DNA of 62,371 bases, the filler included, from Stramenopiles sp. TOSAG23-6 (Eukaryota): the NCBI GenBank assembly GCA_900128565.1. It is 26 parts of 26 records of this genome, joined end to end, with 100 filler letters (N's around TTAATTAATTAA, not from the genome) between each part and the next. Parts side by side here need not be neighbours in the genome. Positions count along the whole stretch, not along the records: positions 9,672 to 11,987 come from LT638137.1; positions 12,088 to 14,401 come from LT638138.1; positions 14,502 to 16,812 come from LT638139.1; positions 16,913 to 19,222 come from LT638140.1; positions 19,323 to 21,631 come from LT638141.1; positions 21,732 to 24,038 come from LT638142.1; positions 24,139 to 26,444 come from LT638143.1; positions 26,545 to 28,850 come from LT638144.1; 18 more parts are not named here. One strand, written 5' to 3'. Position numbers and translations under genes: made by a program. Each line of letters opens with the position of its first letter. Position 1 is the stretch's first letter. The notes beneath the pieces are model-generated. The model was not told where the DNA came from. It searched no databases and saw nothing but the letters and a program-made list of their open reading frames with translations. This document shows positions 11,183 through 47,918 of this stretch, piece after piece.

Positions 11183-11987
11183 ATGACCGATTTAGGAAAT
11201 CTACTTGAATGTATATTATCAGCGGCAAGTTTTCGAGATAACGATGATCGTGCACCTGTCCAATTCTCACTTTCTCAGAGAAACCCTTTCGAGGAAAAAC
11301 TTTCAACTATTTTATCGAATACTTCAGATAGTGATTTGCTGTCATTGCTAACACTAGTAGCAAGCGGAGACCCATCGCGTTGTCGGACACTATTAGAGGC
11401 TGTGCTGAGTGCGGCTAGGGCACTTCCGGGAAAGTCACCAGTTAAAAAAGGGCGGTGGCGTTATCAAGTTTTGAAAGTCTGTGTTGATTTAATGAATGCT
11501 GGTCGAATGATCGGACTGAATGCACAAAAGTGTACCCATCTTCTTTTATCTGAGTGCGATGAACTTGAAACATCGGAAGTAACCCAATTACTTGAATTTA
11601 TTGTTGAAGGCTTAAACGAACGTCTCATTGCTGATGATGTGTGTTATGATGGCGCAGCTCTTGAGTTGATTCCAAAATTACTTAGTAAATTTGAAGAGCA
11701 TGTAACATACAACGTTGTTGTTCAGGAAGGCGAAGAATCTACAGAAATGCTTGGTAGTGCATATTGCGATTATATAGTTCAAAGTATATGTACTTCACCT
11801 TGGCCATCATCTACTGTTGTACGTTTAACGACACTATTTAAAGAAATGTCAATATACGTTTTCATAGTGAATTTCAATGTTTTTTTTTATTCGTACAAAA
11901 TTTCGTACCTAACGATTTTTCACGTGTGAAATATTTTTTCCAATATGTTTGTCCAGAACGTCTTCTGTGTGTAATTCGTAAAGTTCT
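11183..11987 (+). CDS. FANCI: FANCI-like protein, N-terminal part (intron 11854-11948, AT...GT)
   Basis: GAALELIPKLLS...SICTSPWPSSTVVRLTTLFKEM resembles the FANCI N-terminal solenoid. Confidence 0.65.
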
Positions 11988-12164
11988 NNNNNNNNNNNNN
12001 NNNNNNNNNNNNNNNNNNNNNNNNNNNNNNNTTAATTAATTAANNNNNNNNNNNNNNNNNNNNNNNNNNNNNNNNNNNNNNNNNNNNGTTAGGTACAAAA
12101 TTTCGTATGAAAAATTAAAATTTCAAAAAAAAAAAATTAAATTCGAAATTCATATAAAACATAC

Positions 12165-13072
12165 ATGGTACGTAACCCTTCAACATACACTCCAGTCCGT
12201 GGATGTTCTCTGATGCGTAACGATTTTTTTTTTATGTTTTTATTTTTTGGTGAAATAGTTTGATTTTCTTGTTCTTGTGGTGAAAATAAATCTCTAATTC
12301 TTTCATTATAAATTTCTAAATACGAAATTTCAATGGACACGAAATTCAAAGTTTCATCATCAGATATATTTGTTGGTATGTCCTGTGCTGCTGACTGGAC
12401 ATCAATATCCGCTGACGTAGAACAAATATATCTTGTTTTATCTCTTTCAAATAAAGCGCGACATATACGTGGAATTAAACCAATTTTATTACTTTGTCTT
12501 TGACCATTTTTCTTTTCTTTGGTACAAAATTCTGTACCTATGTCTTCACCAAACATTGTATATGTCTTTCCAGATCCAGTTTGTCCATATGCAAACATGG
12601 AACAGTTATATCCTTCAAACGCATTTTCTAAGATGTAATTTCCTAAATCATTAAAAATATCTTCTTGTGATGCAATATTTGAAGCATAGGGATGTATTAA
12701 TTGTTCTTGTGTGTCAATATCAACACTTTGTGACGATTGAGACTCGATTTCAGGGGAAGAATAAGAAAAATCAAAATTGAACGTTCTTGTCAATCCTTTC
12801 AATGATTCCATTATATCTATACTTTCATTTCTGTTTGTTGTGTTTGGAATATTTGCTTCATCTAAAGCGGATGGCTCAACAATTATTGTACTTTTACCTG
12901 ACATTGTACAGATATTTCTCGCACCACCAGCGATCTCTCTAGCATTAAGCGGTCGAACTCTTACAGCAACCTGTACAGCAGATGAACTTGAATCCAAATG
13001 TACACTCGGAGTAGAATCAGATACAGATGGTTGCATTGTTAATAAAGAAGAATTTACTGTAACATTACTCAT
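12165..13072 (-). CDS. Kinesin-3 family motor, N-terminal part
   Basis: VQVAVRVRPLNARE, FNFDFSY, GYNCSMFAYGQTGSGKTYTM, EISYLEIYNERIRDL, LRIREHPRTGVYVEGL. Confidence 0.9.
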
Positions 13073-13332
13073 TGTAATCAAAGTTTTGAAGCGTTGCTTG
13101 ATTGCAAATTTGCAAACAATTGAATGAATTTATTTTTTTTCATTGTGACGTTTTTTGTTTTTTGTTTTTTGACGTTTGAATAATAGCTTCTAGGGTATTT
13201 AGGGTTAGGGTTATATATATGGCATTCTAGTCATCAAAGTTAAAAAAAAAACGATTCACAATGCAATATAATAGTTTATTATATTCACCTAAAATCAAAA
13301 TCAATTCAATTTTCATCTCATTTGTTTTGGTT

Positions 13333-14112
13333 TTACATAAAATCATCATCATTATAATAATCATCATAACCTCCCTGCATCCAATCATCATCTCTCATGG
13401 TCTTNACAACTTTTTTAACTTTATTTTTTTTCTTCTTTGTTTTAATTCCAGCTTTTTCTTGTTTAATTTTTGCTGATTTTTGAACATTTACAAGTTTTCC
13501 TAATGCCTGATAATCTTTTGAATCCATCAATGGGTTTATTGCCCGTATAAACTCAGAACATGCTGCTAATACACCAATACGGTCGCCATTGGAAACCATA
13601 CTATTTGTCANAAGTTTGANAATTTCGGTATGATCTTCAACAGTATTCAATTGAAGATTCTGTAACAAAATTTCAAGCGTTTCACCTTTTTGTTCTCGAA
13701 CAGCAATAGGTTGAGGGGCTCTACTGAGTGAACCAACGCCGTCTTCGTCTTCTTCGTTGTTTTCAACAGCAACGCCACCTCCATCAAATAGATCTGCACA
13801 AATTGCATTATCAGACTGTTCTACCATCCGAGTAGCATACGCTTTATCCGTTTCACCTTCCATTCGCGTATCGTCTATCAAACCCAAAGCTTTATTTCGC
13901 ATTTTTTCTTCCAATGCTTGGCGTTTCTCGCGCAATTCACGTTCCTTTGCACGTTTTTGATGTTTAGGCTTATTCATGTCAGGAACTGCCGCCGCCTTTG
14001 GAACAGGTGGAGGTGCTACATCGACACACTCCTCTTCATCAGAGAAGTTAGGTGCATCATTATCCTCCGCAAAGTCGGGGACTTCAAATTCGTCATCATC
14101 CCAATCACTCAT
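13333..14112 (-). CDS. EIF3J: Translation initiation factor eIF3 subunit J (intronless)
   Basis: Acidic MSDWDDDEF start, VEQSD...DLF, lysine-rich region and the characteristic DDDFM C-terminus. Confidence 0.8.
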   Translation of the reverse strand: MSDWDDDEFEVPDFAEDNDAPNFSDEEECVDVAPPPVPKAAAVPDMNKPKHQKRAKERELREKRQALEEKMRNKALGLIDDTRMEGETDKAYATRMVEQSDNAICADLFDGGGVAVENNEEDEDGVGSLSRAPQPIAVREQKGETLEILLQNLQLNTVEDHTEIXKLXTNSMVSNGDRIGVLAACSEFIRAINPLMDSKDYQALGKLVNVQKSAKIKQEKAGIKTKKKKNKVKKVXKTMRDDDWMQGGYDDYYNDDDFM

Positions 14113-14873
14113 TGTTATTCTAAAATAATCGTATATACAGCGCTCTCGTATTAATTACAAAATGACATGGGTAGTACACACGAAGGGGATGATGATGATG
14201 CAGATGCAGTCAGTTCGCGCAGTTCCCGGTACTAGGCTTTCGATTTCGTTTTTTTTTCGTTTGAATCAAGGATAGTTTGAATTGTGTTTCAACTTTTTTC
14301 ATGTACAAAACTCGGATAACTTATTTTTCAAGTATTTATACTTCTTTAGAATTTAGATTTACAATTTACAAATTGTTTCTTTTGTTTTGAGATAACCACA
14401 GNNNNNNNNNNNNNNNNNNNNNNNNNNNNNNNNNNNNNNNNNNNNTTAATTAATTAANNNNNNNNNNNNNNNNNNNNNNNNNNNNNNNNNNNNNNNNNNN
14501 NGGATCTCTAATTGGGTTGTGTTGTTCAATAGCTCTAGCTAATAATTGATCATTAGAGCAGTTTCATTACCAAGAGAATCTTGGGAATCCTTATGGCCTT
14601 GTTTTGCAGCTACTGTATACCATTTGACTGCACAACCTTGATTTGCAGCTTCGTGAAACGTTTCTGTTTATATTCCATCAATGAAATCGTACCATAGAAC
14701 TCAAGATAAGAGGCGAGACTGAGATCAAGGAAATCCTAAAAAGATTTCAAATTTTTTCTTCGTTCCTGTGTGCGTTCCTGTGTGTCTTCTTTAACACAAT
14801 TTCAAATTCGCTGTGGATTCTGCTGAGTCCATCCGAAAGTTTCTCCACACTCAATAATACTGAGCGTATAACA

Positions 14874-15995
14874 ATGATACACAGTGTACTATTGAAAGTA
14901 CTATTTGCAGTCAGTTTGTCGTACTCAAAAGGAGAAATTCCTAATCAAATAAATGAAACATGCAGAGGACATTGTAAGAACCAGATTCAGATCAGAGGTG
15001 ATTGTCTTGCTAGTGGTGGTTTCTTTACAAAAAAAATGAATCTTATACAGAAGGATGATGATAAAATTTCGGTTCTAAATATTACGGATCATTTATCTAT
15101 TGGAATGGAACTTAATGTTGATCAAGTTTTAGACGTTTCCAAAGACGTGAGTGGATTGGAATTACTCACCACTCGAATAAAACCTGTAACGGGAGAGTTA
15201 GAACTGGATGGTTTCATATCAGTCAGAGGAAGTATTCATTACACTGGAAAAAATAAGGTAGCTAATAGTGATACTACAGAAAAAGTCACTAGTGCATTTT
15301 TAGAAACAGAGTCTTTCATAGACGACGTCAAAAATGTTAGTAATGGATTTTTTAAAACAGTAAAAAAGAGTGCAAATAACATAGTAAATACTATCAAAAA
15401 GACGTTCCAGAATCCACTTGGAGAAGAAATATCTACACACAAAAGTCATCTAAAAAGTAATAATAGTACTAAAAGTGATGGAATTCATTGGATACCTATA
15501 TTTAACGATAATTTTGACAAGGGTATAGTCAGTACACAGTGGATAGTTTCTTCAAGAAATATAGTACCAATAGTCAGTAACATTTTTCGTACTATAAAAG
15601 CTACACATTGTGGTGGTGGTAATTATTTCATGGGGGGCCATTGTGTTTCAGCAACAAGTGGAAACAGTTTTGTCCATAGAAGTATAAACAACTTATTACC
15701 ACATCATCAAATTAGACTATTAGCAAAGGTACATTTTATTGATCAATGGAGAGGTGAACAGATATTTGCTAGTGTTGATGGTCAAATTGTATGGTTAGAT
15801 TCACATACATCAAATAGTAAAATCCCTATAAACTTTTGTGGTGGAAAAACAACTGGAGATCGATTAGCAGTTCCTATCGATGTGATAATTCCTCATACAA
15901 ATTCCAAGTTAAACCTAGCATTTGGAGCACATTTAAAAAATAACGCTTGTGAACAATCTTGGGGTATTGACGATATTGAAATTTTTGTACGATAA
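14874..15995 (+). CDS. Secreted protein with a Cys-containing C-terminal domain (intronless)
   Basis: Signal-peptide-like N-terminus; C-terminal LPHHQIRL...FIDQWRGE...NFCGG...SWGIDD pattern. Confidence 0.65.
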   Translation: MIHSVLLKVLFAVSLSYSKGEIPNQINETCRGHCKNQIQIRGDCLASGGFFTKKMNLIQKDDDKISVLNITDHLSIGMELNVDQVLDVSKDVSGLELLTTRIKPVTGELELDGFISVRGSIHYTGKNKVANSDTTEKVTSAFLETESFIDDVKNVSNGFFKTVKKSANNIVNTIKKTFQNPLGEEISTHKSHLKSNNSTKSDGIHWIPIFNDNFDKGIVSTQWIVSSRNIVPIVSNIFRTIKATHCGGGNYFMGGHCVSATSGNSFVHRSINNLLPHHQIRLLAKVHFIDQWRGEQIFASVDGQIVWLDSHTSNSKIPINFCGGKTTGDRLAVPIDVIIPHTNSKLNLAFGAHLKNNACEQSWGIDDIEIFVR

Positions 15996-16145
15996 TTAAA
16001 AAAAAAAAAAAAGTAAAAAAAAAAAGAGTGCAAATATTCTATAGTCTATACTATATTATACTATATTATATGTATTTCACCTTGTTTATTTTTGAGAAAT
16101 TACACTGAAAACGATAGAAAAAAAAACGATACAAAAAAGTCTTAA

Positions 16146-16739
16146 CTATGCAACATTATTAGGTGGAATTGGAGGATTTACGGAATCACTAGATTGAGAA
16201 TTTGTCGCTTCGCTAATAGTTTCTTTAGTTTCAGAGTTGTTTGGAGCTTTTAATTCAGATAGTGTTTTAATGATGAGTGCTCTTTCCTCAATAAACTGTG
16301 GATCATCATCTTTGTATTTGTGATATGTCTGTAAATATTTAACGAGCATTTCTCGATTTGCATACAATAATGAATGAACTTCAGGCTTCTTTTCAGGATT
16401 TGCCACAAAAACTTTAAAAACATGAAACGCTTCAAATTTAATTTGGTCTGATTTTGATGCCATTGCAGTCATAATTACTTTTAAATTGCGTTTTGAACCA
16501 ATATATCGAATCATTATGTCATAATTTGAACGTTTTAACAAAATTTCGCCGAGAAGTTTCAAAGCTTCTCGCATAGTAACGTATTCTTTAATAGCGAGAA
16601 CTAACTTCGAATGATACATTTCAAAAAAAGCTTCGTAATTCTTTTCATCTTCAAGATATTTAGCAAAGTAATCACAGTCAACCATAGTCTTGAAAGTTGC
16701 ACTCGCGTCCGAAGAAACATCAAAGTTGCGATTGTGCAA
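16146..16739 (-). CDS. CAB39: MO25/CAB39 family protein, last exon
   Basis: NFDVSSDASATFK, YVTMREALKLLGEILL, IKFEAFHVFKVFVANP. Confidence 0.92.
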   Translation of the reverse strand: MHNRNFDVSSDASATFKTMVDCDYFAKYLEDEKNYEAFFEMYHSKLVLAIKEYVTMREALKLLGEILLKRSNYDIMIRYIGSKRNLKVIMTAMASKSDQIKFEAFHVFKVFVANPEKKPEVHSLLYANREMLVKYLQTYHKYKDDDPQFIEERALIIKTLSELKAPNNSETKETISEATNSQSSDSVNPPIPPNNVA

Positions 16740-17015
16740 ATGTATTTTGGAAAAATATTTCAAAATTTTTTACAAAAAAAAAAATTGTTAGGTACAAAAT
16801 TTCGTACGAAAANNNNNNNNNNNNNNNNNNNNNNNNNNNNNNNNNNNNNNNNNNNNTTAATTAATTAANNNNNNNNNNNNNNNNNNNNNNNNNNNNNNNN
16901 NNNNNNNNNNNNTTTTTAAAATTTGATTTTTTTCCTTAATTTTTTTTTTTTTTTTGGTAAAAAAATTTCGTACCTAACAAATTTCAAATGTTTGAAATAT
17001 TTTCTTATAATATAC

Positions 17016-19142
17016 TCCGATACATTGCTGCATTATATTGGTCAATTATGACTCTAGGAACTATGGGATATGGTGATATTATAGCTGTAACAGGATCTGA
17101 AATGTGGTTAGCAATAATAATAATGTTGTTTGTTTTAGTTTTTTCAATTTCAGATTTATTTTTTTTTATAGAGAATTCCGTACCTAACAATTTTTTTTTC
17201 CAAATATTTTTTCACAAGACATAGTAGGTAGTTCAATATATGCTTATGTAACAGGTTCTGTGTTTGAATTAGTCACTGCAATGAATGAAGATGAAATTCA
17301 TTATGCTAGTTCTGTTGATCAAATGAATAGATTTTGTAAAGACTCTAATATGTTTTATTTTTTTTCAATTTCGAATGTAGTGTTTTTTTTTCGTACGAAA
17401 TTTCGTACCTAACAAATTTTACAAAAAAAAGATATTTTTTCACAATAAATGTACACCTATTGAAACTAGACTTCGTCTTCGGAGATATTTTATGAATTGT
17501 AAAGGTGTTTTTAAAGAACAATATACTCATAAAGTATTAGAGCATATGTCACCAGGATTACGTCAAGAAGTAACCAAATACACGTTAGGTACATTTTCAC
17601 TATTCATTTCAATTTCAAATTTGTTTTTCATTTGAAATTGTTTCTAAAAAAATTAAAAATTTTATATTTTTTATTTTCATACCAAATTGTCAAATTGTAT
17701 ATCTTACCATTCTAATATCTTTGACATATTTTTCCACTTATAGGTCCTTGTATTAAAAGCGTTTATTTTTTTCGTGGAGGAAATAATGAATCATTGTTTA
17801 TTGCACAAATAGCAAGTGCTTTAATTCGAAAAGGTTTCCCTGCCGGAGAACAACTTGTACATTGTCTAATTTAATTTCAAATTTATTTTTTCATATGAAA
17901 TTTCGTACCTAACATTTTTATTTTTTTTTTTTAAATGAAAATTTCATACCTAACATATACCAAATTTTTGAAATATTTTTTCACAATACTTATATTTGCC
18001 GGAGAAGAGGCGCTGAAAATGTATATCATACAAAAAGGTTTAGTAAATACAACTGGGAAAATATTTAGACGTGGTGATGTTTTAGGTACGGATATTGTGC
18101 TAGGAAAAAGACGTACGTTTTCATCATGAAATTCAAATGTATATTTTTTTTTGTAGAACATTTTGTACGTAACGATTTTTTTTTTTTTAATACAAAATTA
18201 TATACCTAACAATTTTTTTTTTACAAAACATTTTTTTTTCACAATATATGTCTATATTCTGCGACATGTCTTTTATTTACTGATGTGATGGTTTTACAAA
18301 AAAAAGATTTTGATAAAATACTACAAGTATGTTTTATTTTTTTTAATTTCGAGTTTTTTTTTCGTACGTAATTTTGTACCTAACGAGTTTTTTTTTCTAA
18401 AATATTTTTTCACAATACAAAGTAATGATTTTACATATCAAAAAAATAAAATTCGAATTTCTGCAAATTGGATTTTTGCACGTAGTAGAATAAGAGCATT
18501 GGGGAAAATGATACGATTATGTCGAAATATGACATTATCAGAATCAATAGCAATAGGAAAACGAATGTATGTTTTTTCATCATGAATTTCAAATTTAGTT
18601 TTTTTTTTTGTAGTAGATTTTGTACCTAAGGATTTTTTTTATGACTCACCAAAAACAAATATATATATATATATATATAATACATGTATGTTGACGCGTG
18701 GAATGAAATTAAGCCTGCTGTGTTTATAGTATTAAAAAGGGCTGGAGTAAAATCAAAACAAAAGCAAAAGTACAACCCTAACCCTAAAGAGGACAAAAAT
18801 TCTAATTCTTTAAGTATTGGTGACCTTGACAGTAGTATTGATATCCTATCTAAAACTCCTCAACTGTTCAGGCAGCATTACTTCCCTCTCCATATTGAAT
18901 TATCTCGTAAACTAGTACAGGAATTACTACTTAGACAAGATATAATAGTACAAAAAGCTTGTGAAAATTTTGTAAAACCAACTCATAATAAATTCATACA
19001 AGATGTTGAACAGTTTACTGCTGCCGCTTCACTAAAAGTATCACAAAAAATAGCGCATCCTATACAGCATGCAATTTTTTTAGGACTATGTATACTAGTA
19101 TTATCAGCTTCAATCACTGGACTATGTTGTTTAGCCATCTAA
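17016..19142 (+). CDS. Cyclic-nucleotide-binding-domain K+ channel (KCNH/CNG-like), C-terminal half, 8 exons
   Basis: Pore YWSIMTLGTMGYGDI, S6 ML|VGSSIYAYVTG, C-linker SPGLRQEV, CNBD FPAGEQL|IFAGEEALKMYIIQKG. Introns: 17128-17222, 17348-17450, 17589-17743, 17857-17991, 18113-18249, 18327-18420, 18567-18685. Confidence 0.85.
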
Positions 19143-19372
19143 GTATGTGTGTCATACAGTATATATTTTGAACTGCTTTTTTTACACCCACAATAAATGA
19201 ATGACTTTATTTTTTTGAAATANNNNNNNNNNNNNNNNNNNNNNNNNNNNNNNNNNNNNNNNNNNNTTAATTAATTAANNNNNNNNNNNNNNNNNNNNNN
19301 NNNNNNNNNNNNNNNNNNNNNNCGAAATTTTGTACCTAACAAATTTCGAATTTAATTTTTTTTACAATACAT

Positions 19373-20037
19373 GTGGGATAGATTTCAGAAGCGAAGTTTA
19401 GAATGGAAAACTGAAAAAGAAAAAATTAAGCCATTTTTATTAGAAGCGGATGATGTTACAATACACAAAGAGCTCAGTAGAATTGAACCCAAATTAAAGA
19501 ATACTATGAAAGCACATCGAATACAACAAAAGTTAAATGGAAATTCATTCGATGGTGTATGTTTTCATCGGGGATTTTAAATTTATTTTTGTTTGTACCA
19601 AAATCTGTACCTAATGATTTTTTTAGTAAAAAAAATATTTTTTCACAACACATGACTCTCGATCCAAGAAAAGAAGAAAATGGTACAAATGTACTGGAAC
19701 TAGGTTTTGTGTTTTTGTCTTTAGTGTAATTTTGCTTCCAGTTTTTTTTCTAGGACTTCGTTTGCTCTACGTAACGTCACAACACATTAATGCAGGTGTG
19801 TTTTATGCTCAACAAAATCCATATCGTGGGATTGATAGTCTTGTTAATCAGGTATATACACCAACTTGGTATTCTGATCATTGGTATAATTCATGGGATA
19901 CTGATAATCCAAAACATCAAACTCCTTCTGTATTAAAGGCAACTCCAATTTCGAAGAATCCAATTTTTATGAAGCCTCTAGAAGTTATCAATATTGATAG
20001 AATAAAGAGAGAAACGATGGCTCTTGACGCTACATGA
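19373..20037 (+). CDS. Hypothetical single-pass membrane protein C-terminus (GT-AT intron 19557-19653)
   Basis: SFDG|DSRSKKRRKW joins in frame to the TM-containing ORF ending at 20037. Confidence 0.55.
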
Positions 20038-20325
20038 TGATAATATACGTTGTAATAAAAATCATGGAATTTTGAATAAATAAGTCCCCCCTAAATATCT
20101 AGTAAGAAGAATTTTAAATATAAGTATTTCTTTATACTATAAAAATGAACATATTCACTTGAGCATGATTTCACAAATTAAATACTCATCCAAATAGTCT
20201 CAATAAAGTTTTCCCAGAAACACTGGTATTCTTTTCTGCGATTATTATATAACATCGCTTTTTGAAAATAAAAGTTTTGCTATACTAAGTTACAAAATCT
20301 TTATAAACACAAAACTTTACAGAAT

Positions 20326-21542
20326 TCACCGAGATACACCCGTATCCTTGAGTTTTTGTAACACTTCAGCAGCTGCTGAAGGGATTCTTGTTCCTGGACC
20401 AAATATAGAAGACACACCAGCATCTTGAAGGAAGGTATAATCTTGAGGGGGAATGACCCCACCACATACAACTAGTACATGACCAAAGTCTTCGGCTTCG
20501 AGTGCTTTAATCAGAGCAGGAACAAGTGTTTTGTGCCCAGCTGCTTGAGAACTCACACCAACTACATGTACATCAGCATCAACAGCTTGCCGTGCAACTT
20601 CTTCAGGAGTATTGAATAATGGTCCTACATCTACGTCAAAGCCAAGATCTGCAAACCCAGTCGCAATTACTTTAGCACCGCGATCGTGGCCATCTTGGCC
20701 CATCTTAGCCACCAACATACGAGGCCTCCGACCAACACTCGAAGCAAATTCCTTTACAGCGTTATACGTTGATGCAAACTCAGCTTGTTCATCCGTCAAA
20801 TCTTTAGATTCGTCAACATCTTCTGAACCTGCCATAAATTGTGAAGAATATGCACCATCAACTACACTATTGACCGCTTTGTGCCTACCCCATTGAGATT
20901 CCAAAGCATCAGAAATTTCTCCAACCGTACATCGTGCTTTAGCAGCGATAATAGAAAGATGTAATAAGTTAGACGGATGACTACCACTACCAGTGCTCTC
21001 CTGCAATGCTGCAGAATCTCTCAATGCTTGAAGTGCATTTTCCACAGCCTTTGAGTCACGTTTTGAGCGAACATGATTTAGTTTTTTCACTTGTTTTTCA
21101 AAAACGTCGGAATTATCAACAGATAAAACGTCAACACTATCCTGTTCACTAAGGCGATATTTATTTACACCAACCACAACATCCTGACACGTATCAATAC
21201 GAGCTTGTTTTTTTGCACTACTTTCTTCAATACGCATTTTTGGCATACCTTGTTCAATAGCTGCAGCCATTCCGCCTAATGAATCAACTTCATCAATAAT
21301 CTTTATTGCTTCAGCCTTCAGCTCAGCCGTTAGCGACTCCATGAGGTAACTTCCAGCCCATGGATCAACGACCTGACATAAACCTGTCTCTTCCTGTAGA
21401 ATAAGTTGTGTGTTGCGAGCAATTCTAGCAGAAAATTCTGTCGGTAAACCAAGAGCTTCATCGAACGAATTTGTATGTAAAGATTGCGTTCCGCCCATAA
21501 CAGCTGCCATTGCTTCAACAGACGTTCGGACGATGTTATTAT
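20326..21542 (-). CDS. MMUT: Methylmalonyl-CoA mutase, last exon
   Basis: [34 protein letters not shown] and the cobalamin-binding motif [14 protein letters not shown]. Confidence 0.97.
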
Positions 21543-21787
21543 ATATGTTGTGAAAAAATATTTTTTTTTGTAAATACGTTAGGTACAAAATTTCGTACGA
21601 AAAAAAAATCGATTTTTTTGTTAAAAAAAAANNNNNNNNNNNNNNNNNNNNNNNNNNNNNNNNNNNNNNNNNNNNTTAATTAATTAANNNNNNNNNNNNN
21701 NNNNNNNNNNNNNNNNNNNNNNNNNNNNNNNTAGGTACGGAATTTCGTACGAAAAAAAAATATTTGAAATGTATCATGGAAACGTAT

Positions 21788-22287
21788 ATGTTTGTAACAA
21801 AATGTTGTTGCCAGGCTAACTCATGAACAAAACGAACTTTTTTTTGCGAGTTTGGATTTGCACCGCAGTACCCATCGAAGACGTACATCTTATCCAAAGA
21901 ATTAAAATGATCTTGTGCTTTAGCAAAGAGTTTATCAAATACTTCTGGAGAAGTTGGTTGGTTTACACTGCCCCACCAAAGGTTTTTGTCGGATTCACTT
22001 CCAATATTTTTTACTATCCACTTATCACCAGGGGATCGACCAGTAAATTTACCAGTATCTACAGAAAATGTTTCCCCATATTCAGCTTTCATGACAACAC
22101 CTTCATCATTACGCTTTTCATGTTCAAATAACTCTGGGTAGGAAAGGTTGTGGTAGATTGTCTCAGGTCCTGTAATGCCGATACTTTCCAGACAATGAGG
22201 ACGAGCTGGACCAGACATACTCCGTATATTCAATGACATTGATCTTCGGAAGAAAACATTGCACGAACGGACGGAATAAGAAAACAT
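21788..22287 (-). CDS. pckA: ATP-dependent phosphoenolpyruvate carboxykinase, exon 1, with a mitochondrial-type presequence
   Basis: VDTGKFTGRSPGDKWIV, VFDGYCGA, AWQQHFVTN. The intron starts with ATACGTTT at 21787. Confidence 0.93.
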
Positions 22288-22602
22288 AGTTTTGATGTAA
22301 GTAGCTGTAATCGAGTATTATTCGTACAGCTCGGTGCAGTCACGTGAATTTTATTTGTGTCTCAAGTCTCAAAACGTTTAACAGCGGTACTTTGTTGGGG
22401 ATCATTTATATCATGATTCAATACATCAATGAGATCTTTTTGACACGTTTTCCCGCGTCATTCGCGTTTTGATTGACAATTATTTTTACATTAGGTAGTA
22501 AAATTTTGGTACGCAATCCTGATACCCGGTTCCATGTAAGTGTAACTGTCTCTCGAAGCATGTTAACATACTACAACGTAGTGTTTGATTTAAGATTCTA
22601 CA

Positions 22603-24038
22603 ATGGTAAACACGTCAATACCTTTTTTGAAGGAAACATCTATTATGACAATTCCAAATATTCAAAAACAATCGGTCAATCNGCGTAGTATAGCGAAATC
22701 TCATGAAATTTCTCGAAACCAGGACAGAACAAATCAACTGCACTCTAATCAACTTGAAGCTGTCATTCAAAACATACAGAAAATAAGAGAAGTGATATAT
22801 ATTGAATCGTGCAATAAAAATAATCAATTGAATACTTCTAGGGTTCTAAAAGATTGCTTAAATAGTAATACGAATGCCTCTGGGTGGGAAGATGTGCTCC
22901 AATATCTCTCTCGTTACGATACTACAGGTACGCTTATGCATTTCGAAGAGTCTACAAAAAATACTATAATACGTCTATTTTCTTCCTCTACATCCTCTAA
23001 AAGATATCAAAAAGACAAACAAGGAGAAAATGAAATATCCAGTGAAGATTTAACTGATTTTTTTACTCAAAAACCTAAAACAACTAAAAAACCTAAAAAG
23101 CTTACAAATGATGAAACACTATCTAAAAAGGTTGAAGAAATACAAAAACAGAGAATAATAAAATATAGTAAAACACACATCGATGACATTCAAAATTTCA
23201 ATCTTTCCACAAATGTTTCAAAAGTATACACATTGAGTTTGAAAGAAAAGCAAAAATATAAAGAAAAACTTGATATGTTAGTTCAAAAACAACAAAAAGA
23301 AAAAGACAATTTAATAAGAAAATGTAAAGATAAACTGAAAAGAGATGAACAGAAATTAGAAATCTCGGGCTCAAAAAAAAACACCAACACGCGTTAAATA
23401 CATTTTCTCGGAAAGAAAGCAATGCACTCATTAAAGGACATGCAAAACTAGATCAAAGATTTAACGATGATGTGCGTTTTAAAAAGTGAATATTTTGGCC
23501 AAAGTTTTTTATTTCTTTTGAATGGCGAAGTGTTAGAGCTTCTACATCTTTATTTTGATTATCCAAATTCTTTTTTATTATCCAAAAAAAAAAAACTATA
23601 TTTTTTCACAATGCATATAAGAGCTACAGAATCTCCTCAAGAAGTTGCAGAATTGAAACAGCGTCTACGAAATACTCGTGAATTCAATGAAAATGAGTTT
23701 GGTAAAAAAAATGAATATTATGTACAAAAACCTAGCATTGAAACATGCAACGACTGTATATTAACCCTAACCCTAATGAATAATTTTCCATTTTTTTTAA
23801 TATTACATTTTGTACCTAATGAAAACAAACTGTGACAGATTTTATCACAATACATATGAATTTGTTAGAGGCTTCAAATATGCGAGAACGAGTTATTGAA
23901 GATGCTTTACTAAAAGGGAAAATTGCAGTTCTTAAAAAGCAGAATTTGGATAATCAAAATAAAGATGAAGAAGCTCTAACACTTCGCCATTCAAAAGGAA
24001 TAAAAAACTTTGGAGTTCCAATGGATGAAACAATGTGT
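22603..24038 (+). CDS. Hypothetical coiled-coil protein (one apparent 1-nt indel near 23360; diverged family introns 23472-23616 and one ending 23855)
   Basis: Consecutive ORFs can be linked by excising the introns. Confidence 0.45.
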
Positions 24039-26544: not shown

Positions 26545-28805
26545 CTCACAATACTTGTGGCATCAAAGAAGTCCATCCAAAAACCCATCAGAGCGACAAA
26601 GTATACCTCATAAACACCCCACAGAACGTAGAGCAATTCGAATGGCAGCACAACAAAATCTTCCTAGTCAGCAAGCTCTCCGGCGCACAGTGTATGATTG
26701 TAGAGATCGACTTGGAAAAACGAAACTAACTCGACTCATGTATGTTTATTTTTTTTATTTTTTTTTAAATTTTTAAATTTTTTTTTTCGTACGAAATTTT
26801 GTACCTAACATTTTTTTCAAATTTTTTTTGAAATATTTTTCCAAAATACATTCCTCGTCAATGTCTAGCATTTGATTCACACTTTGAGTCAGGAAATCTT
26901 TTAAAAGCCGAACGAATTTTTAGAAGCCATCAGTATACAAAAATGAATGGCAACACAAGTAACACTGGATTTAGCACTGAAAGGCATGTAAGTTTTATTT
27001 TTTTTTTTTTTTTTTTAAAGTAAAATTTAGAATGGATAAATTTTTTTTTTTTTNNNNNNNNNNNNNNNNNNNNNNNNNNNNNNNNNNNNNNNNNNNNNNN
27101 NNNNNNNNNNNNNNNNNNNNNNTAACAAAAAATAATTTGAAATATTGTTTCACATTGCATTTATTTGGTTCTATTCAAAAACGATCATTACAGGATATGC
27201 ATTGGCTTAAGCCAATCCTACATTCTGATTCTAAAAACCCTAATTCTAATTCTATATTGAAAAAAACACAAAATAAACAAAATAAACAAAATAAACAAAA
27301 CACAGCATTTAGATCAGCTAACACTAACACTAATACAAACACTAATGAAAAAGCAAAAGATGCAATAGAAGTTCAAGAATATGATTTGACAATATCAGCT
27401 GATGTTGGCACTGAAAGACATGTATGTTTTATTTTGTTTTTGTTTTTGTGAAATATTTTTTTTTTTGGTACGAAATTTCATACCTAACAAAAAAAAATTT
27501 GAAATATTTTTCCAAAATACATGTGTTTTTTTTTTCTTTATTTACCGAAAAAAAAAAAAATTGTACCTAACGATTGTTTTTTTTTTTGAAATATTTTTCC
27601 AAAATACATGCTCAATTTAATTATGGCCAACGTCCAGTCTGTTACAGTTACACCGCAGCAATGACAAAAAGTAGAGGTTGGGAACCATGTGGATATAATA
27701 TTTCATATATTTCATCAAATGAAAGTAGCATAAGATGCAAAGTTCGTCGATACTGCCTCTGCTTTGATTATGAATTTCAACATCAAGGTGATAGCGAAGC
27801 ATGTTTTTTTGCGTTTAGTCCACCATATACATATACCGACATGCGAGCCACTCTAGGTGATATCATGAGCGACCCAGAAAGAGCTATGTATATAAAACAA
27901 CGTGAGTTGTGTACAACGTTAGCTGGTAATCATGTTGATATCTTGACAATTACAGCACCACATCAAAACAAAAAAAATATTGCTGAAAAAAATGATAAAG
28001 ATGAAACACAATTTAGAGCAAATAAACAAAACAACAAAAACATACCTGAAAATAATATAGATGAAACACAACATAGAGCAAATAAACAAAACAACAAAAA
28101 TATTGCTGAAAATAATAAAGATAAGACACAAATTTGGCCAATCATTCCTAGACAAGAAAGATTTATTGTCGTACTCACAGCACGGGTTCACCCTGGTGAA
28201 GCCAATGCTTCATTCGTAATGGAAGGTTTACTTTTATTCCTCACTGACCCTGATAATAAGGAGGCTAAACAACTACGAAATTGTATCGAGTTTCATGTCA
28301 TCCCAATGTTGAATCCAGACGGAGTCATCAATGGTAATTATCGATGTTCCTTGTCACGCGATGATCTCAATAGACAATACCAAAATCCATTGGAGTATTC
28401 TCACAAGCCTGTGTTTTACTTTAAACAAATGATGAAATCATTGAGTCTACTGCATTACCGTGGAAAGAGTAAACTTGCTTTTTATTGTGATTTTCATGGG
28501 CATTCTAGAAAAAATGAAGTTTTCATGTATGGCTGTGTTGATAAAAGAACATTGAGTAATCGCCCTGTGCCTTTACAGCCACTACCTTTAACTGTGCAGA
28601 CTCGTCCACAAACAGTAACAAAATCATCAAACCCTAACCCTAACCCTAAACCGAATTCTACAGATGAAGAAAAACAAACTCAATATACATTATCTCAAAA
28701 TAACACACCTGTTTTGAGCGCTGCACAAATAGCTAGGAAGCGTATCCGTTCGGAAAGACAAATGCGAGTTTTAGAACAAAACGAAAAAGACACTCAAATG
28801 TGGAT
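26545..28805 (+). CDS. Cytosolic carboxypeptidase (CCP/AGBL, M14 zinc peptidase, tubulin deglutamylase-type), internal part
   Basis: FDSHFESGNL, QEYDL, PPYTYTD, ARVHPGE, PMLNPDGVINGNYRC, DLNR, DFHGHS. Confidence 0.92.
27963..28132 (+). repeat. In-frame ~60-nt tandem repeat (about 3 copies) within the carboxypeptidase
   Basis: NKKNIAEKNDKDETQFRANKQ / NNKNIPENNIDETQHRANKQ / NNKNIAENNKDKTQ. Confidence 0.8.
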
Positions 28806-29009: not shown

Positions 29010-29691
29010 ATACAAACTGAACACGATCCAATTTCCAATTTTTTTTTTTTACGTGCAACGTGATCACTACCAGTACTACCAGTAAAGACTGCTTTTGGTG
29101 TAACGAAATGTTCAACTTTATTTGTTACTTTTGTACTTTGATCGATTGTATTACGTGTCAAAAAAAATCAAAACATTTGTTAGGTACAAAATTTCCTATA
29201 AAAAAAAATTGAAAATTTGAAATTCATGATGAAAACGTAATTAAAGTAAATCGAGGTGCAAGTGAAAATGTATTCAATGTATTTGAAAATCTTTGATCAT
29301 AATCCAATGATAGTCTATCTCTAATTGCTACGAGAAGATCTGAGGAATCTTTCTTAGTCGGCATATTGGAAAACAATTTGACTGAGGAATTTATAATAGA
29401 TGATTCATTTGAACTTTTCTTAGTAATAGACTGCTTAAACCGAGTTTCATCTTGTTTTCTTTCATCTATTGAACGTCTTGTAATTTCCTTCTTAAGCGAT
29501 AATAGAGAAATTAACTCTTTCTTAATACCCATCAGTGTTGCAGCATTTCGATTAATAGCATCACTCCGATCCTGAATTTCCTGTTGCTGTCGCCGTAATA
29601 TACTTTCTATATTCTCTTGTGCTAGGAGTTGAGGGATTGTTCCGCTTGTAAACAAACAAAATATACCACAGAGTAAATATAGCCAAATCAT
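29010..29691 (-). CDS. Signal-peptide/anchor coiled-coil protein, 5' part (intron 29146-29240, TT...AA)
   Basis: Hydrophobic N-terminus; PRFTL|IDQSTK joins in frame. Confidence 0.55.
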
Positions 29692-37181: not shown

Positions 37182-38463
37182 ATGGTAGTATCATCGGAGA
37201 ATGTTGAATCAATTGTACATAATGTGGTTAATAATACACAAGTAGTTGACCTTCATACTCATTTATTTCCATTTACTCACGATGATTTATTTGTGTATGG
37301 CATTGATGAGTTATTGACATATCACTATCTCATTGCTGAGTTCTTTGCAGTTGCGTCGAATGAAATTTCCACTGAAGTGTTTTTCTCTCTGACAAAACAG
37401 AAACAAGCAGATTTGATTTGGTACAAACTGTTTATCCAGCGTTCCCCAATATCCGAGGCTTGTCTGGGCGTTTTGACAGTTCTAAAAAAGTTAGGTTTAG
37501 ATACTTTCATTGTAAATCGTGATCTTCAAGGTATTCGTTCATGGTATGCAAAATTTTCACCAGAAGAATTTGAATCTTTAGTATTTACAAAAGCTAAAGT
37601 ACGATATGCAGTCATGACTAATATCCCATTTGACCCAGTCGAAGCAAAACATTGGATGAACAACAAAAAAGTTTCAAGTTATTATGTACGTTTTATTTTA
37701 TTTTATTTTTTTTTTGTTTTTCGTACGAAATTTTGTACCTAACGAATTTTCAATTTTTTTTTTGAAATATTTTTCCAAAATAAACAAGTCTGCTCTGCGC
37801 GTAGATGCTTTACTTTCAGCCAATGGATGGGACACTGTCTCAAAATCGCTTGTTGCTGCTGGTTTTCCAGCATCTATTGAAGGTGCACGAGAATATTTAC
37901 GATCTTGGATTAAACGAATGAACGTTTTTTTTTTTGAAATTTTTTTTTTGAAATTTTTTTTTTTGAAATTTTTTTTTCGTACGAAATTTTGTACCTAACA
38001 GTTTTTTTTAGATTTTTTTTTTTTGAATTTTTTCACAATAAATATCTCCTGTATATTTAATGGCATCGACGCCCTGTGGATTTGCAACTCCTCTTCCATA
38101 CCAAAATTCCGTACCTAAAAACCCTAACCCTAACAGCAGTGAAGAATATCCGTCACCACAAACACTTCTTGTTGATGTTATAATATACGTTGCTCGTGAA
38201 CAAAATTTGGCTGTAGCGATGAAAATTGGCGCTGATCGATGTGTAAATCCTTGTTTGCACACAGCTGGTGATGTATATTTTCATCATGAATTTCAAATTT
38301 ATTTATTTTTTTTTTTTTTATAGAAAATTTCAAATTTTTTTTTTTTTTTCAAAATTTTAAATTTTTTTAAACAATTTTCTGTTGTTTCACATTTTGTCAA
38401 TATTATAGGGTGTCGAAGTCGCTGATCTTTCAATCATCAAATATTTCTGTCAAAATTTTCCAG
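37182..38463 (+). CDS. Uronate (glucuronate) isomerase of the Bacillus halodurans BH0493-like amidohydrolase group, 3' truncated
   Basis: VVDLHTHLF, GIDELLTYHYLIAEF, QADLIW..LF..RSPISEAC.GV, VMTNIPFD. Introns: 37686-37785, 37920-38043, 38273-38408. Confidence 0.82.
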
Positions 38464-41067: not shown

Positions 41068-42561
41068 GAAGTGGTGATATCATTGAATGTTATATTTCTT
41101 GTGTTGAATTTCAAATCAAACATACAAATGAATATTTGTCGGCTTTGTGTGGAAGAAATACTCAAAATATTGAAAAAAAAAGATGGCCTTGAGGCGTCTT
41201 TAACAATTGCTAGAAAAGGTCTAATATCTGCAAATACAGCTCTTGTGGCTTCAACAAAAGAAAATCACAAGGTTTATTCCAAGCTATCTGAACAAAAAGA
41301 GTCAGCAACATCCGAGTATGAAAAACTCTGGAATGAGAATAAAAAATATAATACTAAAATTGTACAATTAGAATATGAAATAAAACATTTACAAAAACAA
41401 CAAAATAGTATAAAACACGAATCGAAGTCTCAAATTAGAAAAGGTATCAATCATATCGATTCAAAATACTCTTTACAGAAAAATCGAGATTTTTTGGCGT
41501 GTAATGAAAGTAAAAAGAAACACGATGATAGCTCATCATGTGATTCAGATTCAAACTCAGACTCAAATTCTGATTTAAATGTAGATGTAAAAAACGAAAA
41601 ATTGTCACAAAAGTTAAAAAATACACGAAATCTTTTAAAGACAATGTCACAAGAAAAAGCACAACTAATAAATATGAGTAAACGATTGAAGTCTGAGCTA
41701 CGAAAAATGGCAACCGAGAAGAAAACTATTGAAGAAAATACACGACATCCATTGAAATCTGAGAAGAAAACCATTAAAGAAAATACACGAAATCCATTGA
41801 AATCTGATTTACAAATAGAAAAACAAGATGAATATACTCAGAAAATATTAGCTGTGAAGAGCGCCCTTGAAACTTTAGCAAAGCATAATAAAGCATTAGA
41901 TGATGATGATAATTATTTGCCACACGAAAAACATGAAACTACAAAACATACAATGAAACCTCCACAACAAAATGTGTCGAAACAACTTTGGGCACCAAAT
42001 GTTTCAAAAGTTCCAAAAACAAGTTTTCGTGTTTCTACATCAAGTCGCTTTGGTGGCCCTGTAGCGACATCAAGTGGTCGAATGACAAAGAGTCAAAAGG
42101 ACGCCGCAAAGAGAATTCAGAAGCGTCATCAAAAATCGATCCAACAAAAAAAAAATATTCCTAGAAATTATGTAGAATTGAAAAAAATACAAATGGAAAA
42201 AGTAAAAAATATACAAAATAATGATACTACTGAAACAAAAGATAATATATATAAAAGTAATATAAATAGTGGAAATTCTGGACATTATAACCCTAACCCT
42301 AACAACAATTCTTGCGATGTAGAACTTTTATTAGCAATGCAGCAACAACTGAAGAGGAGATGTGTAACTCGGAATCATTTATTTATTGTTAGTGATGCCG
42401 ATAGAAATAATAAACTTTCTTTGAAAGAATTCGAGAAAGGAATAGCTCTCGTTGGTGTTCGACCAATCCCTAATAAAAAAGAGATTCAAATATTATTTGA
42501 ATCGTATGATATTGATCAGGATGGCTCAATTGTGTGGAGTGAGATTAAAAGTAAAATATAA
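41068..42561 (+). CDS. Coiled-coil protein with a C-terminal EF-hand pair
   Basis: DADRNNKLSLKEF and LFESYDIDQDGSIVWSEI. Confidence 0.7.
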   Translation, partial: EVVISLNVIFLVLNFKSNIQMNICRLCVEEILKILKKKDGLEASLTIARKGLISANTALVASTKENHKVYSKLSEQKESATSEYEKLWNENKKYNTKIVQLEYEIKHLQKQQNSIKHESKSQIRKGINHIDSKYSLQKNRDFLACNESKKKHDDSSSCDSDSNSDSNSDLNVDVKNEKLSQKLKNTRNLLKTMSQEKAQLINMSKRLKSELRKMATEKKTIEENTRHPLKSEKKTIKENTRNPLKSDLQIEKQDEYTQKILAVKSALETLAKHNKALDDDDNYLPHEKHETTKHTMKPPQQNVSKQLWAPNVSKVPKTSFRVSTSSRFGGPVATSSGRMTKSQKDAAKRIQKRHQKSIQQKKNIPRNYVELKKIQMEKVKNIQNNDTTETKDNIYKSNINSGNSGHYNPNPNNNSCDVELLLAMQQQLKRRCVTRNHLFIVSDADRNNKLSLKEFEKGIALVGVRPIPNKKEIQILFESYDIDQDGSIVWSEIKSKI

Positions 42562-43418: not shown

Positions 43419-44897
43419 GTGCCTTTTTATGCTGTGCCTCCTGTGTTGCTATTATTAAATGCGTTTCCTGTTAGCGCTATTGGAAAATTAGACAGAAAGC
43501 TAGTATCATCTGAAAATGCAAGAAAATTACCCAAAATGATTTCGACAATGTCAGCGAATGAAAATTATGAAAATATTAAGGAAAATAATGAAAATAATGA
43601 AAATATTAAGGAAAATAATTATAATAATGATGATGGTGTTTGTGTATCCGAGGAAGATATTTTAAAGACTCCAATTGAACATCAATTGGCATCAATTTGT
43701 ACGTTTTCCTATACAATTTCAAATTTATTTTTTTATTTTTCCTAGAAAATTTCGAATTTCAAATTTATTTTTATTTTTCCTAGAAAATTTCGTACCTAAT
43801 GATTCTTTTTTCGACATATTATTTTTCACTATACAGGGGAAACATTATTAAGTTTGGATACGTCCAGTGTTGGAGCATTTGATTCTTTTTTCCTCGTTGG
43901 TGGTCATTCTTTACTCGCTGTTCGTTTATGTAGGTTTTTTTTTTTTTTTGAATTTTTTTTTAAATTTTTTTTTATAGTTTATTTTGTACCTAACAAAAAA
44001 CAATTTTTAATTTTTAAATATTTTTTTTTTTGTAGCAGCTAAAATAAAAGCAGAATTCTTTACTAAAAAAGACCCGGGTAATGAATCTTCTGTATGTTTT
44101 ATGAAAAATCATTTGAAATTAAGTGACATTGTTCAAAATCCTGAATTGAGACAAATGGCAAGTTTAATTGAAGAAAGATTAAAACTTCATAATGTAAATA
44201 CAAAATCGAATACAAAATCAATACATTCTGAAACATCTAAAAAATTTAATTTTTCTATTGATATAGAAACTAAATTATCTGATGATATTTATCCTGCAGC
44301 AACACGAAAAACGGGATATTCACGAGTTCGTCCATTTCAACAAATTGAATCAAATAAGGTTCCAAATCGGATATTATTGACTGGAGCTACTGGTTTTCTC
44401 GGTGCTTTTCTATTATTAGAATTGTTATCAAATACGACAGCGACAATTTATTGTATTGTCCGTGCTAAAAATGATGATATTGCTTTCAAAAGAATAATTG
44501 ATAATTTATCAAAGTATGACATGAATAATGATATTATTCTTTCAAGTATTGAAAACGATCGAATTATTGGAATCTCTGGTGATTTATCGCGTATGTTTTT
44601 GTATCATGAATTTTACTATTTATTCCTTACAAAAAATAGGTTTTTTTATTTGTGTAGTACAAAATTTCATACCTAACAAAAACAAAAACAAATTTCAATA
44701 TTTTTTTTTTCCTTTATAGTAAATTTCATACCTAACAAAAACAAAAACAAATTTCAATATTTTTTCATGATACATGTCCTTTGGTAGGATTATCCACTCG
44801 GGCGTTTCAAGAATTAGCAACAATTATTGATGTCATTATTCACAATGGTGCAGAAGTGAATTTAATAAAATCATATGAATCACTTAAATCTACAAAT
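43419..44897 (+). CDS. NRPS-like adenylation-thiolation-reductase protein (internal exons)
   Basis: A-domain end (PFYAVP...FPVSAIGKLDRK), T domain (LASI|WETLL...DSFFLVGGHSLLAVRL) and thioester reductase (ILLTGATGFLGAFLL, GDLS|RPLVGL, IIHNGAEVN). Confidence 0.88.
43699..43836 (+). other. Family intron with canonical GT-AG ends (defines the family register)
   Basis: att t|gtacgtttt...cgtacctaat...cactatacag|gg gaa gives the conserved Trp of the T domain. Confidence 0.85.
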
Positions 44898-45065
44898 GTA
44901 TGTTTTATTTTTTTTTTTTAACAAAAAAATCGAATTTTTTTTTCGTACGAAATGTTGTACCTAACAATTTTTTTTTTTACAAAAAAAAAAATTTTATAAC
45001 CAAAAAATTTTTTTTTTTTTTTTTTTTTTTCATACAAAAATTTTTACCTAAAAAAAAATTAATTT

Positions 45066-45096
<31 letters not shown>

Positions 45097-45136
45097 TGAC
45101 TAAAAAAAAAAAATTAAAATATTTTTTACAATATAT

Positions 45137-45868: not shown

Positions 45869-45904
<36 letters not shown>

Positions 45905-46299
45905 CAAATTTTTGATTTTTTTTTTGTGTTCCCCTACATGTTATATAATGTAAAAGACAAATTAAATAAAACCAAGGGGAATCCTCTGAAAATATCGACA
46001 ATATATTGTATAATTGTATACTACTATATACATCATATGTATTGTACATGTGTTCCATTGAATCAATATATAGTCTAAATATTAAAAGTTTAAAAAAAAT
46101 AATAATAAATTGTCAATTTTGTATTTGTCGACGTTTATTTTGTAAAAAAAAATGCACATAAAAACTCGATAATTTCTTTACCTTTTGTTGTAGTGTCGCC
46201 ATAATAATACTATAATATTATATACATGATTTATGTATCATATATACGAAAAAAGGCGGCGTAAATGTTACATTGATGGAACAGAAAAGAAAAACTGCT

Positions 46300-46665
46300 T
46301 TACCATTTTTCTGCATCAGCCCAGTCGTTTTGGTCACGGTTTGGTCTTGGAGCTCCCATTACAAAACCACCGTCTTCTGCGGTAACACCAACAGCACGCT
46401 CACGGCCATCATCACCACTTTCAACACGGAAGCGAACCTTTTCTCCATCAGCGAGGGAACGGAATCCATCTGCGTGTACTTGTGTCTGGTGGACGAAGAC
46501 GTCACGGTCTCCAGAATCAGGAATAATGAAACCAAAACCTTTGACAGCATCAAACCATTTTACTGTTCCATAAATCATACCATCCTCTGCTCCAGCGCAG
46601 AAAGATCGTAACATGGTTGGACGGACAATGGAGCCGGTCATTGTAGCAAGGCGAATCATGGACAT
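46300..46665 (-). CDS. Cold-shock domain protein with a mitochondrial-type presequence
   Basis: GTVKWFDAVKGFGFI...DVFVHQT...GFRSLADGEKVRF. Confidence 0.92.
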   Translation of the reverse strand: MSMIRLATMTGSIVRPTMLRSFCAGAEDGMIYGTVKWFDAVKGFGFIIPDSGDRDVFVHQTQVHADGFRSLADGEKVRFRVESGDDGRERAVGVTAEDGGFVMGAPRPNRDQNDWADAEKW

Positions 46666-47019
46666 ATTGTTGAAAATAATTGTTGAATAAATTGATAGTT
46701 TAAGTGAACGACCNAANACAANGGAAAAAGACATGCGCTTCCTTCTACTCTTTTTCACACAAACTTTTTGTGCTGAATTTCTTGACAAAGCAAAGTTGAA
46801 GCAGGTTTGTTTTATTAAGTAGTAATTTTTGGTACAACATTGTGTTTTTTTGACTACCTCTCTATCCGAGTCTTTTTCGATCAATCATGAGCCCGCCCGC
46901 AACAACACACACACTTACTACGTATATTGTACGCACAATAATAATAACTATTGTTGTGGAACAAATAGAGGTAATACTACCCCCCTGAATTTGCATTCTA
47001 CATAATATAATCATCCACC

Positions 47020-47918
47020 ATGGCTGCTGTTGCAAAGATTGCAGAAATTGAACTCGAGATTTCTCGTACACAAAAAAATAAAGCTACAGCAAAACATCTT
47101 GGATCCCTCAAGGCAAAACTTGCGAAACTAAGACGTGAGATTCTTGCGGACGGCCAAAGTGGTGGTGGCGGCGGTGGACAAGGTTTTGAAGTTCAAAAAT
47201 CCGGTGACACCCGTGTAGGTTTGATTGGTTTTCCATCTGTTGGAAAATCAACTTTACTTAGTAAACTAACAAATGTGAAATCTGAAGTCGCAGCGTATGA
47301 GTTTACAACATTGACTTGTATACCAGGTGTAATTTACTATAAAGGTGCAAAGATCCAATTACTCGATTTACCTGGTATTATTGAAGGTGCTAAAGACGGC
47401 AAAGGACGCGGTAAGCAAATTATTGCAACAGCACGAACATGTAATGTTTTACTGGTCGTTTTAGATGTAAATAAGCCACTGACTCATCGTTATCTCATTG
47501 AGAAAGAGTTGGCAGGTTTTTCCATTCGACTAAATCAACAACCTCCAAATATCAAATTTAAAAAGAAAGAAAAAGGAGGTATCAGTTTCACATGTAAAGA
47601 TAAATCCTTAGATATTGATACTGTCAAATCAGTCCTATCTGAATATCGTATTCATAACGCTGATGTCAACATTCGAGAACCTATATGTTTTATTTATTTT
47701 TTTTTTTACAATTTTTTTTTTCGTACGAAATTTTGTACCTAACAAATTTTCAAATTTTTTTTTTGAAATATTTTTCCAAAATACATAATTGCACAGTGGA
47801 ACAGTTGATTGATGTTATTGAAGGAAATCGAATTTATATGCCCTGCCTCTATGTCTTGAATAAAATAGATTCAATCTCAATTGAAGAATTAGATCTGTTA
47901 TCAACTGTCCCACATTAT
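47020..47918 (+). CDS. DRG1: Developmentally regulated GTP-binding protein (DRG1/Rbg1), exons 47020-47682 and 47787-47918, 3' truncated
   Basis: [55 protein letters not shown]. Confidence 0.95.
47683..47786 (+). other. Family intron, AT-AT, 104 nt
   Basis: gaa cct|atatgtttt...caaaatacat|aat tgc aca gtg keeps the conserved CTV..LIDV of DRG. Confidence 0.65.

Follow-up and report, generated by a model that had tools for sequence, protein, structure and literature searches.

Introns that break the GT-AG rule at both ends are already known from Fritillaria, Amoebophrya, Euglena and diplonemids. In Fritillaria borealis and its relatives, many non-GT/AG introns are processed by the U2-type spliceosome, as shown by RNA, and isosteric pairs of the first and last bases are discussed as a chemical limit (PMC13326754). 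In Amoebophrya, more than 60% of introns are non-GT-AG, as confirmed by RNA-seq, and introners with direct repeats at their borders spread like transposons (PMC7789003). Here we describe a family of short repeated introns in draft genomic DNA of Stramenopiles sp. TOSAG23-6 (assembly GCA_900128565.1), most copies of which end in AT and six of which also start with a dinucleotide other than GT. The window, by which we mean the whole stretch of DNA that was analyzed, is 62,371 nucleotides (nt) long.

The introns in this window resemble those of Fritillaria in that they depart from GT/AG at both ends. In Fritillaria, GT/AG introns account for less than 10% of the total and the ends vary widely; here, GT makes up 88% of the 5′ ends and a single 3′ end, AT, dominates. 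In addition, the cuts in Fritillaria are proven by RNA, whereas those in the present protist are predicted from sequence. The similarity to Amoebophrya lies in a marine protist with repeated, transposon-like introns bordered by direct repeats. In Amoebophrya, the introners fold into hairpins through inverted repeats of 8–20 nt, no single terminal dinucleotide prevails among them, and U1 has not been detected (PMC7789003). In contrast, the copies folded here gave no end-joining hairpin better than shuffles, and the donor box and branch box of this family are strong and resemble those of yeast. As with the introners of Micromonas and Aureococcus, a short element is found in many unrelated genes and a target-site duplication appears to supply part of the splice site. 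Aureococcus introners have canonical splice motifs (PMC7789003), whereas the family described here has AT at its end and also lacks GT in 12% of its copies. The nonconventional introns of Euglena and diplonemids are abundant, occur in protists and are without GT-AG borders (PMC12501133, PMC12621601); by description they have no conventional boundaries at all, whereas the 5′ box and the branch box of the present family still look conventional. U12-type AT-AC introns are similar in their AT start and their long conserved branch box ending in TAAC, but the introns here differ from them in the donor box, in the distance between branch box and 3′ end and in the terminal dinucleotide, AT in place of AC. 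In the full-text literature, which leaves most subscription journals outside, we found no GT-AT intron family and no non-GT introners described for stramenopiles.

Consensus, ends and reading frame of the intron family

The window contains one family of introns of about 100 nt (29 complete copies; length 87–185 nt, median 101) with the consensus AT/GTAYGTTTT ... TTCGTACGAAATTTTGTACCTAAC ... about 40 nt ... AATACAT/, in which the slash marks the exon border. Aligned by the surroundings of the branch box, the copies read exon-AT/GTAYGTTTT, a T-rich stretch, TTTCGTACGAAATTTT-GTACCTAAC, about 40 nt and ...CAAAATACAT/exon. The branch box GTACCTAAC occurs 63 times in the window at no more than one mismatch versus 5.9 expected, and the distance from its A to the 3′ end is 33–56 nt (median 40) in the complete copies. 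The 3′ ends of these 29 copies are AT in 23, AG in 3, AA in 2 and AC in 1. Since three copies end in AG, the same family yields ordinary GT-AG introns too. In the flank upstream of the intron, a putative target-site duplication, A is at −2 in 38 and T at −1 in 44 of the 51 curated 5′ ends. The termini themselves carry only a GTA..TAC repeat. When seven copies were folded, none did better than its shuffles (z −1.6 to +0.5), and an end stem of 4 base pairs (GUAU/AUAC) formed in only two of them.

The ends defined by the family alignment were examined for their effect on the reading frame. A copy was considered informative only if one frame was clearly open on each side, and the chance of an in-frame join is 1/3 per copy. 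All 19 informative copies, out of 28 units, joined open frames with zero shift, including those at 17348, 29240 and 47683, which indicates that the family-defined ends are real exon borders. This test replaced a looser one with a 12-codon threshold, which was dropped after 17 of 28 controls with a shifted 3′ end had passed it. At 27422–27609 on the plus strand, two family copies follow each other head to tail (...AATACAT/GTGTTTTTT...) without an intervening exon, and the frame is kept only by the removal of both.

All six non-GT motifs listed in a preliminary description of the window are present in the sequence at their positions and on their strands (Table 1). The family body, consisting of the T-rich spacer, CGTACGAAATTTT and the box, follows downstream. 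Since the box is 49–71 nt away from each site, the sites are family members rather than chance motifs; the box at 21787 is cut by the contig end. The box regions have 0–3 mismatches, as in GT copies. These observations identify the six sites as true members of a family that appears to be derived from a mobile element, or 'introner'. The flank is AT at 11854, 21787 and 37920, and it is TA, AA and CT at 17348, 29240 and 47683, respectively.

Across the 51 curated 5′ ends, position +1 is G in 46, A in 4 and T in 1, while position +2 is T in 50 and A in 1. The non-GT starts represent about one in eight (6/51 or 12%; 95% confidence interval 4–24%), with four AT, one TT and one GA. The mutated base is G+1 in five of these copies and T+2 in one. 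At other positions of the 9-mer, G+5 and T+8 are each kept in 47 and T+9 in 45 of the 51 copies, and G+1 is about equally kept. The preliminary description considered +3 to +9 to be conserved while +1 and +2 vary. This is the case for the six sites, which were found through that very motif; across the family, other positions vary as much. G+1 is better kept than the interior G/C positions of the CGTACG box (46/51 vs 118/172; Fisher p = 0.002), suggesting that the constraint on it is weakened, not absent. Judging from these counts, G+1 is still favored and its loss appears to be tolerated much more frequently than is usual for eukaryotes. A possible seventh non-GT start, located in the 3′ part of an intron that begins at 56207 and is cut by an N gap, was excluded from the count; this second 5′-like box lacking GT, within 56109–56207, may be a nested or tandem copy.

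Protein homology at the six junctions and RNA coverage at DRG

The exon of the gene for ATP-dependent PEPCK reads ...AWQQHFVTN, followed by AT and then by the intron start ATACGTTTCC. PEPCK enzymes in PDB read HFV(T/K)NMFIR at this junction. Among the 120 matches listed for longer PEPCK homologues, the motif is present in 107, every one of which goes on with MFIR[PA]; among the near-length fragments, MF follows in 30 of 31 and TF in the remaining one. Overall, 137 of the 138 homologues with the motif retain N-M-F. The N-M pair can be obtained only if the exon ends in ...AAC AT and is completed by the G of the next exon, in which case the intron starts with ATACG. A donor at the GT of +5 would yield N-I-Y instead. 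The claim of the preliminary description that N-M needs an exon ending in AT is upheld by these homologues. As judged by homology, this junction demands a non-GT cut and would exclude the nearby GT. No intron was found at this site in the relatives compared, and the PEPCK intron looks like a lineage-specific insertion into the ATG codon, which fits the AT duplication of the family. A search of the protein collection for the PEPCK of the same species found none; the best matches reached 85% for longer proteins and 80% for those of near length.

The second gene with informative homologues encodes a developmentally regulated GTP-binding protein (DRG). Excision of 47683–47786 results in the junction REP/NCT, which matches the nearest homologue, P0001 (85% in the protein search, 83% by tblastn). 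This homologue reads REPNCTIDQLIDV, within the longer stretch IREPNCTIDQLIDV; in the alignment exon 1 stops at its P and exon 2 starts at its N. The registers −1, 0 and +1 produce identical mRNA (TA..CA, AT..AT and TA..TA), and none of them begins with GT. The spacing between HNAD and LIDV was parsed in 93 DRG homologues and was 11 residues in 90, 12 in the three closest and 10 in none. The excision above gives 12 residues, while an alternative using the GT at +5 and an AG gives 10. Shifting both cuts by 4 nt (GT..TT) keeps the 12 residues and replaces N with I (REP-I-CT); the three relatives with 12 residues have N, K and K at this position. DRG homology therefore appears to favor the non-GT cut with moderate support. 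No DRG of the same species was found in the protein collection, where the best match was 85%.

Homology at the remaining sites was less discriminating. The conserved gene with the intron at 37920 has 696 relatives at E ≤ 0.001, and searches of Pfam and PDB with its short exons returned no match. Its junction, WIKR-I-SPVYLMAS, is in frame and has one residue that separates the end of exon B (...WIKR) from the start of exon C (SPVYLMAS...), and exactly one residue is found in all 13 homologues that align across both sides of the intron. Homology at 37920 is consistent with a non-GT cut, not decisive. For the K+ channel at 17348, the junction KDS-S-TPIETRL joins two single open frames without a shift, which is consistent with a non-GT cut as well but not discriminating. 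At 29240, the registers −2 to +1 give identical mRNA (AA..AC, AT..CA, TT..AA and TA..AT), and none of them is GT. For FANCI, the start of the intron is clear, in-frame 3′ ends are possible at 11945, 11948, 11951 and 11954, and the contig ends at 11987, about 40 nt past the intron. Other candidates for the FANCI 3′ end were rejected: the ends given by the family alignment are out of frame and an AG at 11956 leads to a stop. The preliminary description proposed that both terminal dinucleotides are relaxed. A departure from GT-AG at both ends does stand, as the family ends in AT in 23 of 29 copies and the non-GT starts are real in the assembly. The specific pairs it gave, AT-GT for FANCI and TT-AA for 29240, are not fixed, with the FANCI end unplaceable and four equivalent registers at 29240.

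RNA data were available from metatranscriptomes. Nine runs, polyA or other, each hold 6–12% of the words of 12350–22340. Contigs from four polyA runs (X1, X2, X3 and X7) were mapped onto 46723–48045, the DRG contig only. Coverage was restricted to the 3′ part of the element at 47713–47802, where hundreds of contigs from other copies reached a summed word depth in the thousands; in X1, nearly all of the 532 records over the mapped stretch fell there. The loose ends of these contigs lie exactly behind 47786, the family 3′ end, and mark the end of the element. Those libraries are therefore rich in sequences of the family, be it as unspliced introns, as pieces of excised ones or as DNA.

Features and composition of the window

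Table 1. Non-GT introns, other family copies and telomere-like repeats in the window.
Feature	Coordinates	Strand	Start and end	Remarks
FANCI (solenoid 1) intron	11854..11948	+	ATACGTTTT after AT flank	box at 11905; Pfam FANCI_S1 E=4e-16 in upstream exon
K+ channel intron	17348..17450	+	ATATGTTTT ... CACAATAAAT; AT..AT by family alignment	pore TLGTMGYGD in upstream exon; Ion_trans_2
ATP-dependent PEPCK intron, 5′ part	21732..21787	-	motif ATACGTTTC at 21787; intron starts ATACGTTTCC after exon end ...AAC AT	contig ends in intron at branch box
Intron in coiled-coil-like gene	29146..29240	-	TTACGTTTT ... GTAATACAA	in frame
First intron of 37920 gene	37686-37785	+	GT start; family-aligned 3′ end AC (CCAAAATAAAC/AAG)	in frame; same gene as GA..AT copy
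Second intron of conserved gene (HTHLFP...MTNIPFDP)	37920..38043	+	GAACGTTTT ... CACAATAAAT after AT flank; GA..AT	
DRG intron	47683..47786	+	ATATGTTTT ... CCAAAATACAT; AT..AT	
Possible seventh non-GT start	56109-56130	-	ATACGTTTTCATCAGG	
Family copy ending AG	43699-43836	+	end CACTATACAG	
Family copy ending AG	43930-44035	+	end TTTTTGTAG	
Family copy ending AG	53133-53233	-	end CACAATACAG	
Telomere-like (CCCTAA)2, examples	28632-28649, 31570-31599, 42291-42302, 30748-30759, 18776-18787, 47919-47940, 38111-38135, 23756-23776			

The window is not one piece of a chromosome; its 62 kilobases (kb) consist of about 26 contigs of about 2.3 kb each, chained artificially by falling length with linkers of 44 N, TTAATTAATTAA and 44 N. 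The G+C content is about 30%, that of an AT-rich marine protist. The contigs carry eukaryotic genes in the standard code, including those for PEPCK, DRG, FANCI, the K+ channel, methylmalonyl-CoA mutase and others, and single N and N runs are scattered through these draft sequences. In many contigs a family intron is interrupted by the contig end, which indicates that the repeat breaks the assembly.

The telomere-like sequence (CCCTAA)2 occurs 20 times in the window at no more than one mismatch, versus 0.09 expected. Most occurrences are within open reading frames, where they are read as NPNPN, and they are also present at intron starts and ends (GTATGTTAGGGTTAGGG; ...GTACCTAAAAACCCTAACCCTAACAG).

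Possible explanations of the non-GT copies

The genes that carry the six copies are intact and conserved, and splicing most probably still takes these copies out at the positions used in their GT relatives. GT and non-GT copies have the 5′ box and the branch box in common, AYGUUUU and GUACCUAAC in RNA letters. A 5′ box of GUAYGU and a branch box resembling UAC(C)UAAC have the appearance of strong U2-type signals, as in the yeast consensus. We propose that a U2-type spliceosome with relaxed demands on the intron ends removes the non-GT copies at the family-defined ends, and we estimate the probability of this explanation at about 0.6. The U2 type, the cutting of the RNA and the recognition of its ends are what we infer from the DNA. 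Recognition of the 5′ cut would rely above all on the long box at +3 to +9 and on the AT at −2/−1; the 3′ cut would be placed by the branch box plus a roughly constant distance and by the end of the element itself. A G at +1 would be preferred without being indispensable, and the terminal G of AG would already be dispensable in most family members. A more far-reaching version is tentative and, in our view, rather doubtful. In this version the mobile intron itself would hold the signals for both cuts, namely the +3 to +9 box, the branch box and a distance measured to the end of the element; neither the first nor the last G would be chemically required, and a Watson-Crick or wobble-like terminal pair would have taken the place of the universal G-G contact in step 2 of splicing. 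The first and last bases would be G..T in most copies, A..T at 17348 and 47683, and T..A or T..T at 29240, which is suggestive, but the cases are far too few for a claim of covariation.

Several observations weigh against removal at the family-defined ends. At 37920, the GT at 37924 combined with a 3′ end 4 nt later, so that the intron ends in CT, gives a product of equal length that reads R-M-N-P as in the homologue P0365. The same 4-nt shift of both cuts alters DRG by a single residue with frame and length kept, and in the channel gene it also keeps frame and length, where homology is too weak to choose. The 3′ anchor at 29240 comes from a substitution alignment that was picked over an indel alignment. 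The 3′ region of the FANCI intron (...TTCCAATATGTTTGTCCAG) fails to align with the end shared by the family, and the 3′ exon of PEPCK is outside the window on another contig, so no 3′ end of that intron is seen here. The nearest homologues are gene predictions or contigs of other species, at best 85% identical. The RNA contigs mapped on 46723–48045 left the DRG exons uncovered in all four runs and contained no joint between 47683 and 47786; they are silent on the splicing of this copy. Searches of a metagenome contig collection with two exact family patterns had no match and yielded no independent DNA copy.

One alternative is the use of an ordinary donor inside the element; a GT is present at +5/+6 in all six copies. 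The transcripts could be cut at this GT (NNAY/GTTTT) and 4 nt downstream of the family 3′ end, so that the introns would still start with GT. Frame and length are preserved by this shift, and the R-M-N-P at 37920 and a DRG length equal to that of the nearest homologue agree with it. On the other hand, it would replace the N-M-F of 137 in 138 PEPCK homologues with N-I-Y and deprive DRG of the N that it has in common with its nearest homologue. The shifted 3′ ends AC, TT and CT share no signal, whereas the unshifted ones are AT, AT and AT as in 23 of 29 copies, and the family-defined ends were in frame in every informative copy. Internal GT donors are thus improbable as the explanation for the six sites. 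It is also unlikely that the non-GT copies are crippled introns, either retained or spliced poorly or aberrantly, in alleles that have lost part or all of their function or are kept working by low-level cryptic splicing. G+1 is under some constraint, so its loss should have a cost, and three of the four runs contain RNA contigs that hold the element's 3′ part unspliced in many copies. Those contigs stem from other copies, however, and may represent pre-mRNA or DNA. Moreover, PEPCK, DRG and four more genes with intact conserved exons would be disabled, and a fraction of 12% dead introns is implausible for a compact genome.

Errors in base calling or assembly could in principle have placed A, T and A at +1/+2 in such a fragmented draft, with its contigs of about 2.3 kb containing N and N runs and an element that is highly repeated. 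Six errors in 102 positions would amount to a rate that is excluded by long open reading frames, which are intact over hundreds of codons and 76–83% identical to homologues. Positions +1/+2 adjoin unique exon sequence as well and should be spared by repeat collapse. We therefore consider such errors very unlikely. There is equally little to be expected of a U12-type (minor) or hybrid spliceosome handling the AT-starting copies with the CCTAAC box as a U12-like branch site. Four of the six copies do start with AT, and GTACCTAAC resembles the U12 branch consensus TCCTTAAC. The U12 donor consensus is RTATCCTT, whereas the AT starts read ATAYGTTT, as their GT relatives do, and the ATATCC donor box is found in none. 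The branch box is at a median of 40 nt from the 3′ end, as opposed to about 10–26 nt in U12 introns. The introns end in AT and not AC, the single AC copy being one that starts with GT, and the same box serves the GT copies. The window had no Rfam match to a small nuclear RNA gene.

If RNA confirms the cuts, removal of the non-GT copies at the family-defined ends would provide a natural case in which splicing within a single young, well-defined family can do without G+1 as well as without the 3′ AG. Copies that differ by single bases would then constitute a mutational series on what fixes the cut sites. Gene finders bound to GT-AG will disrupt genes such as PEPCK and DRG, and many more, in this protist and its uncultured marine relatives.

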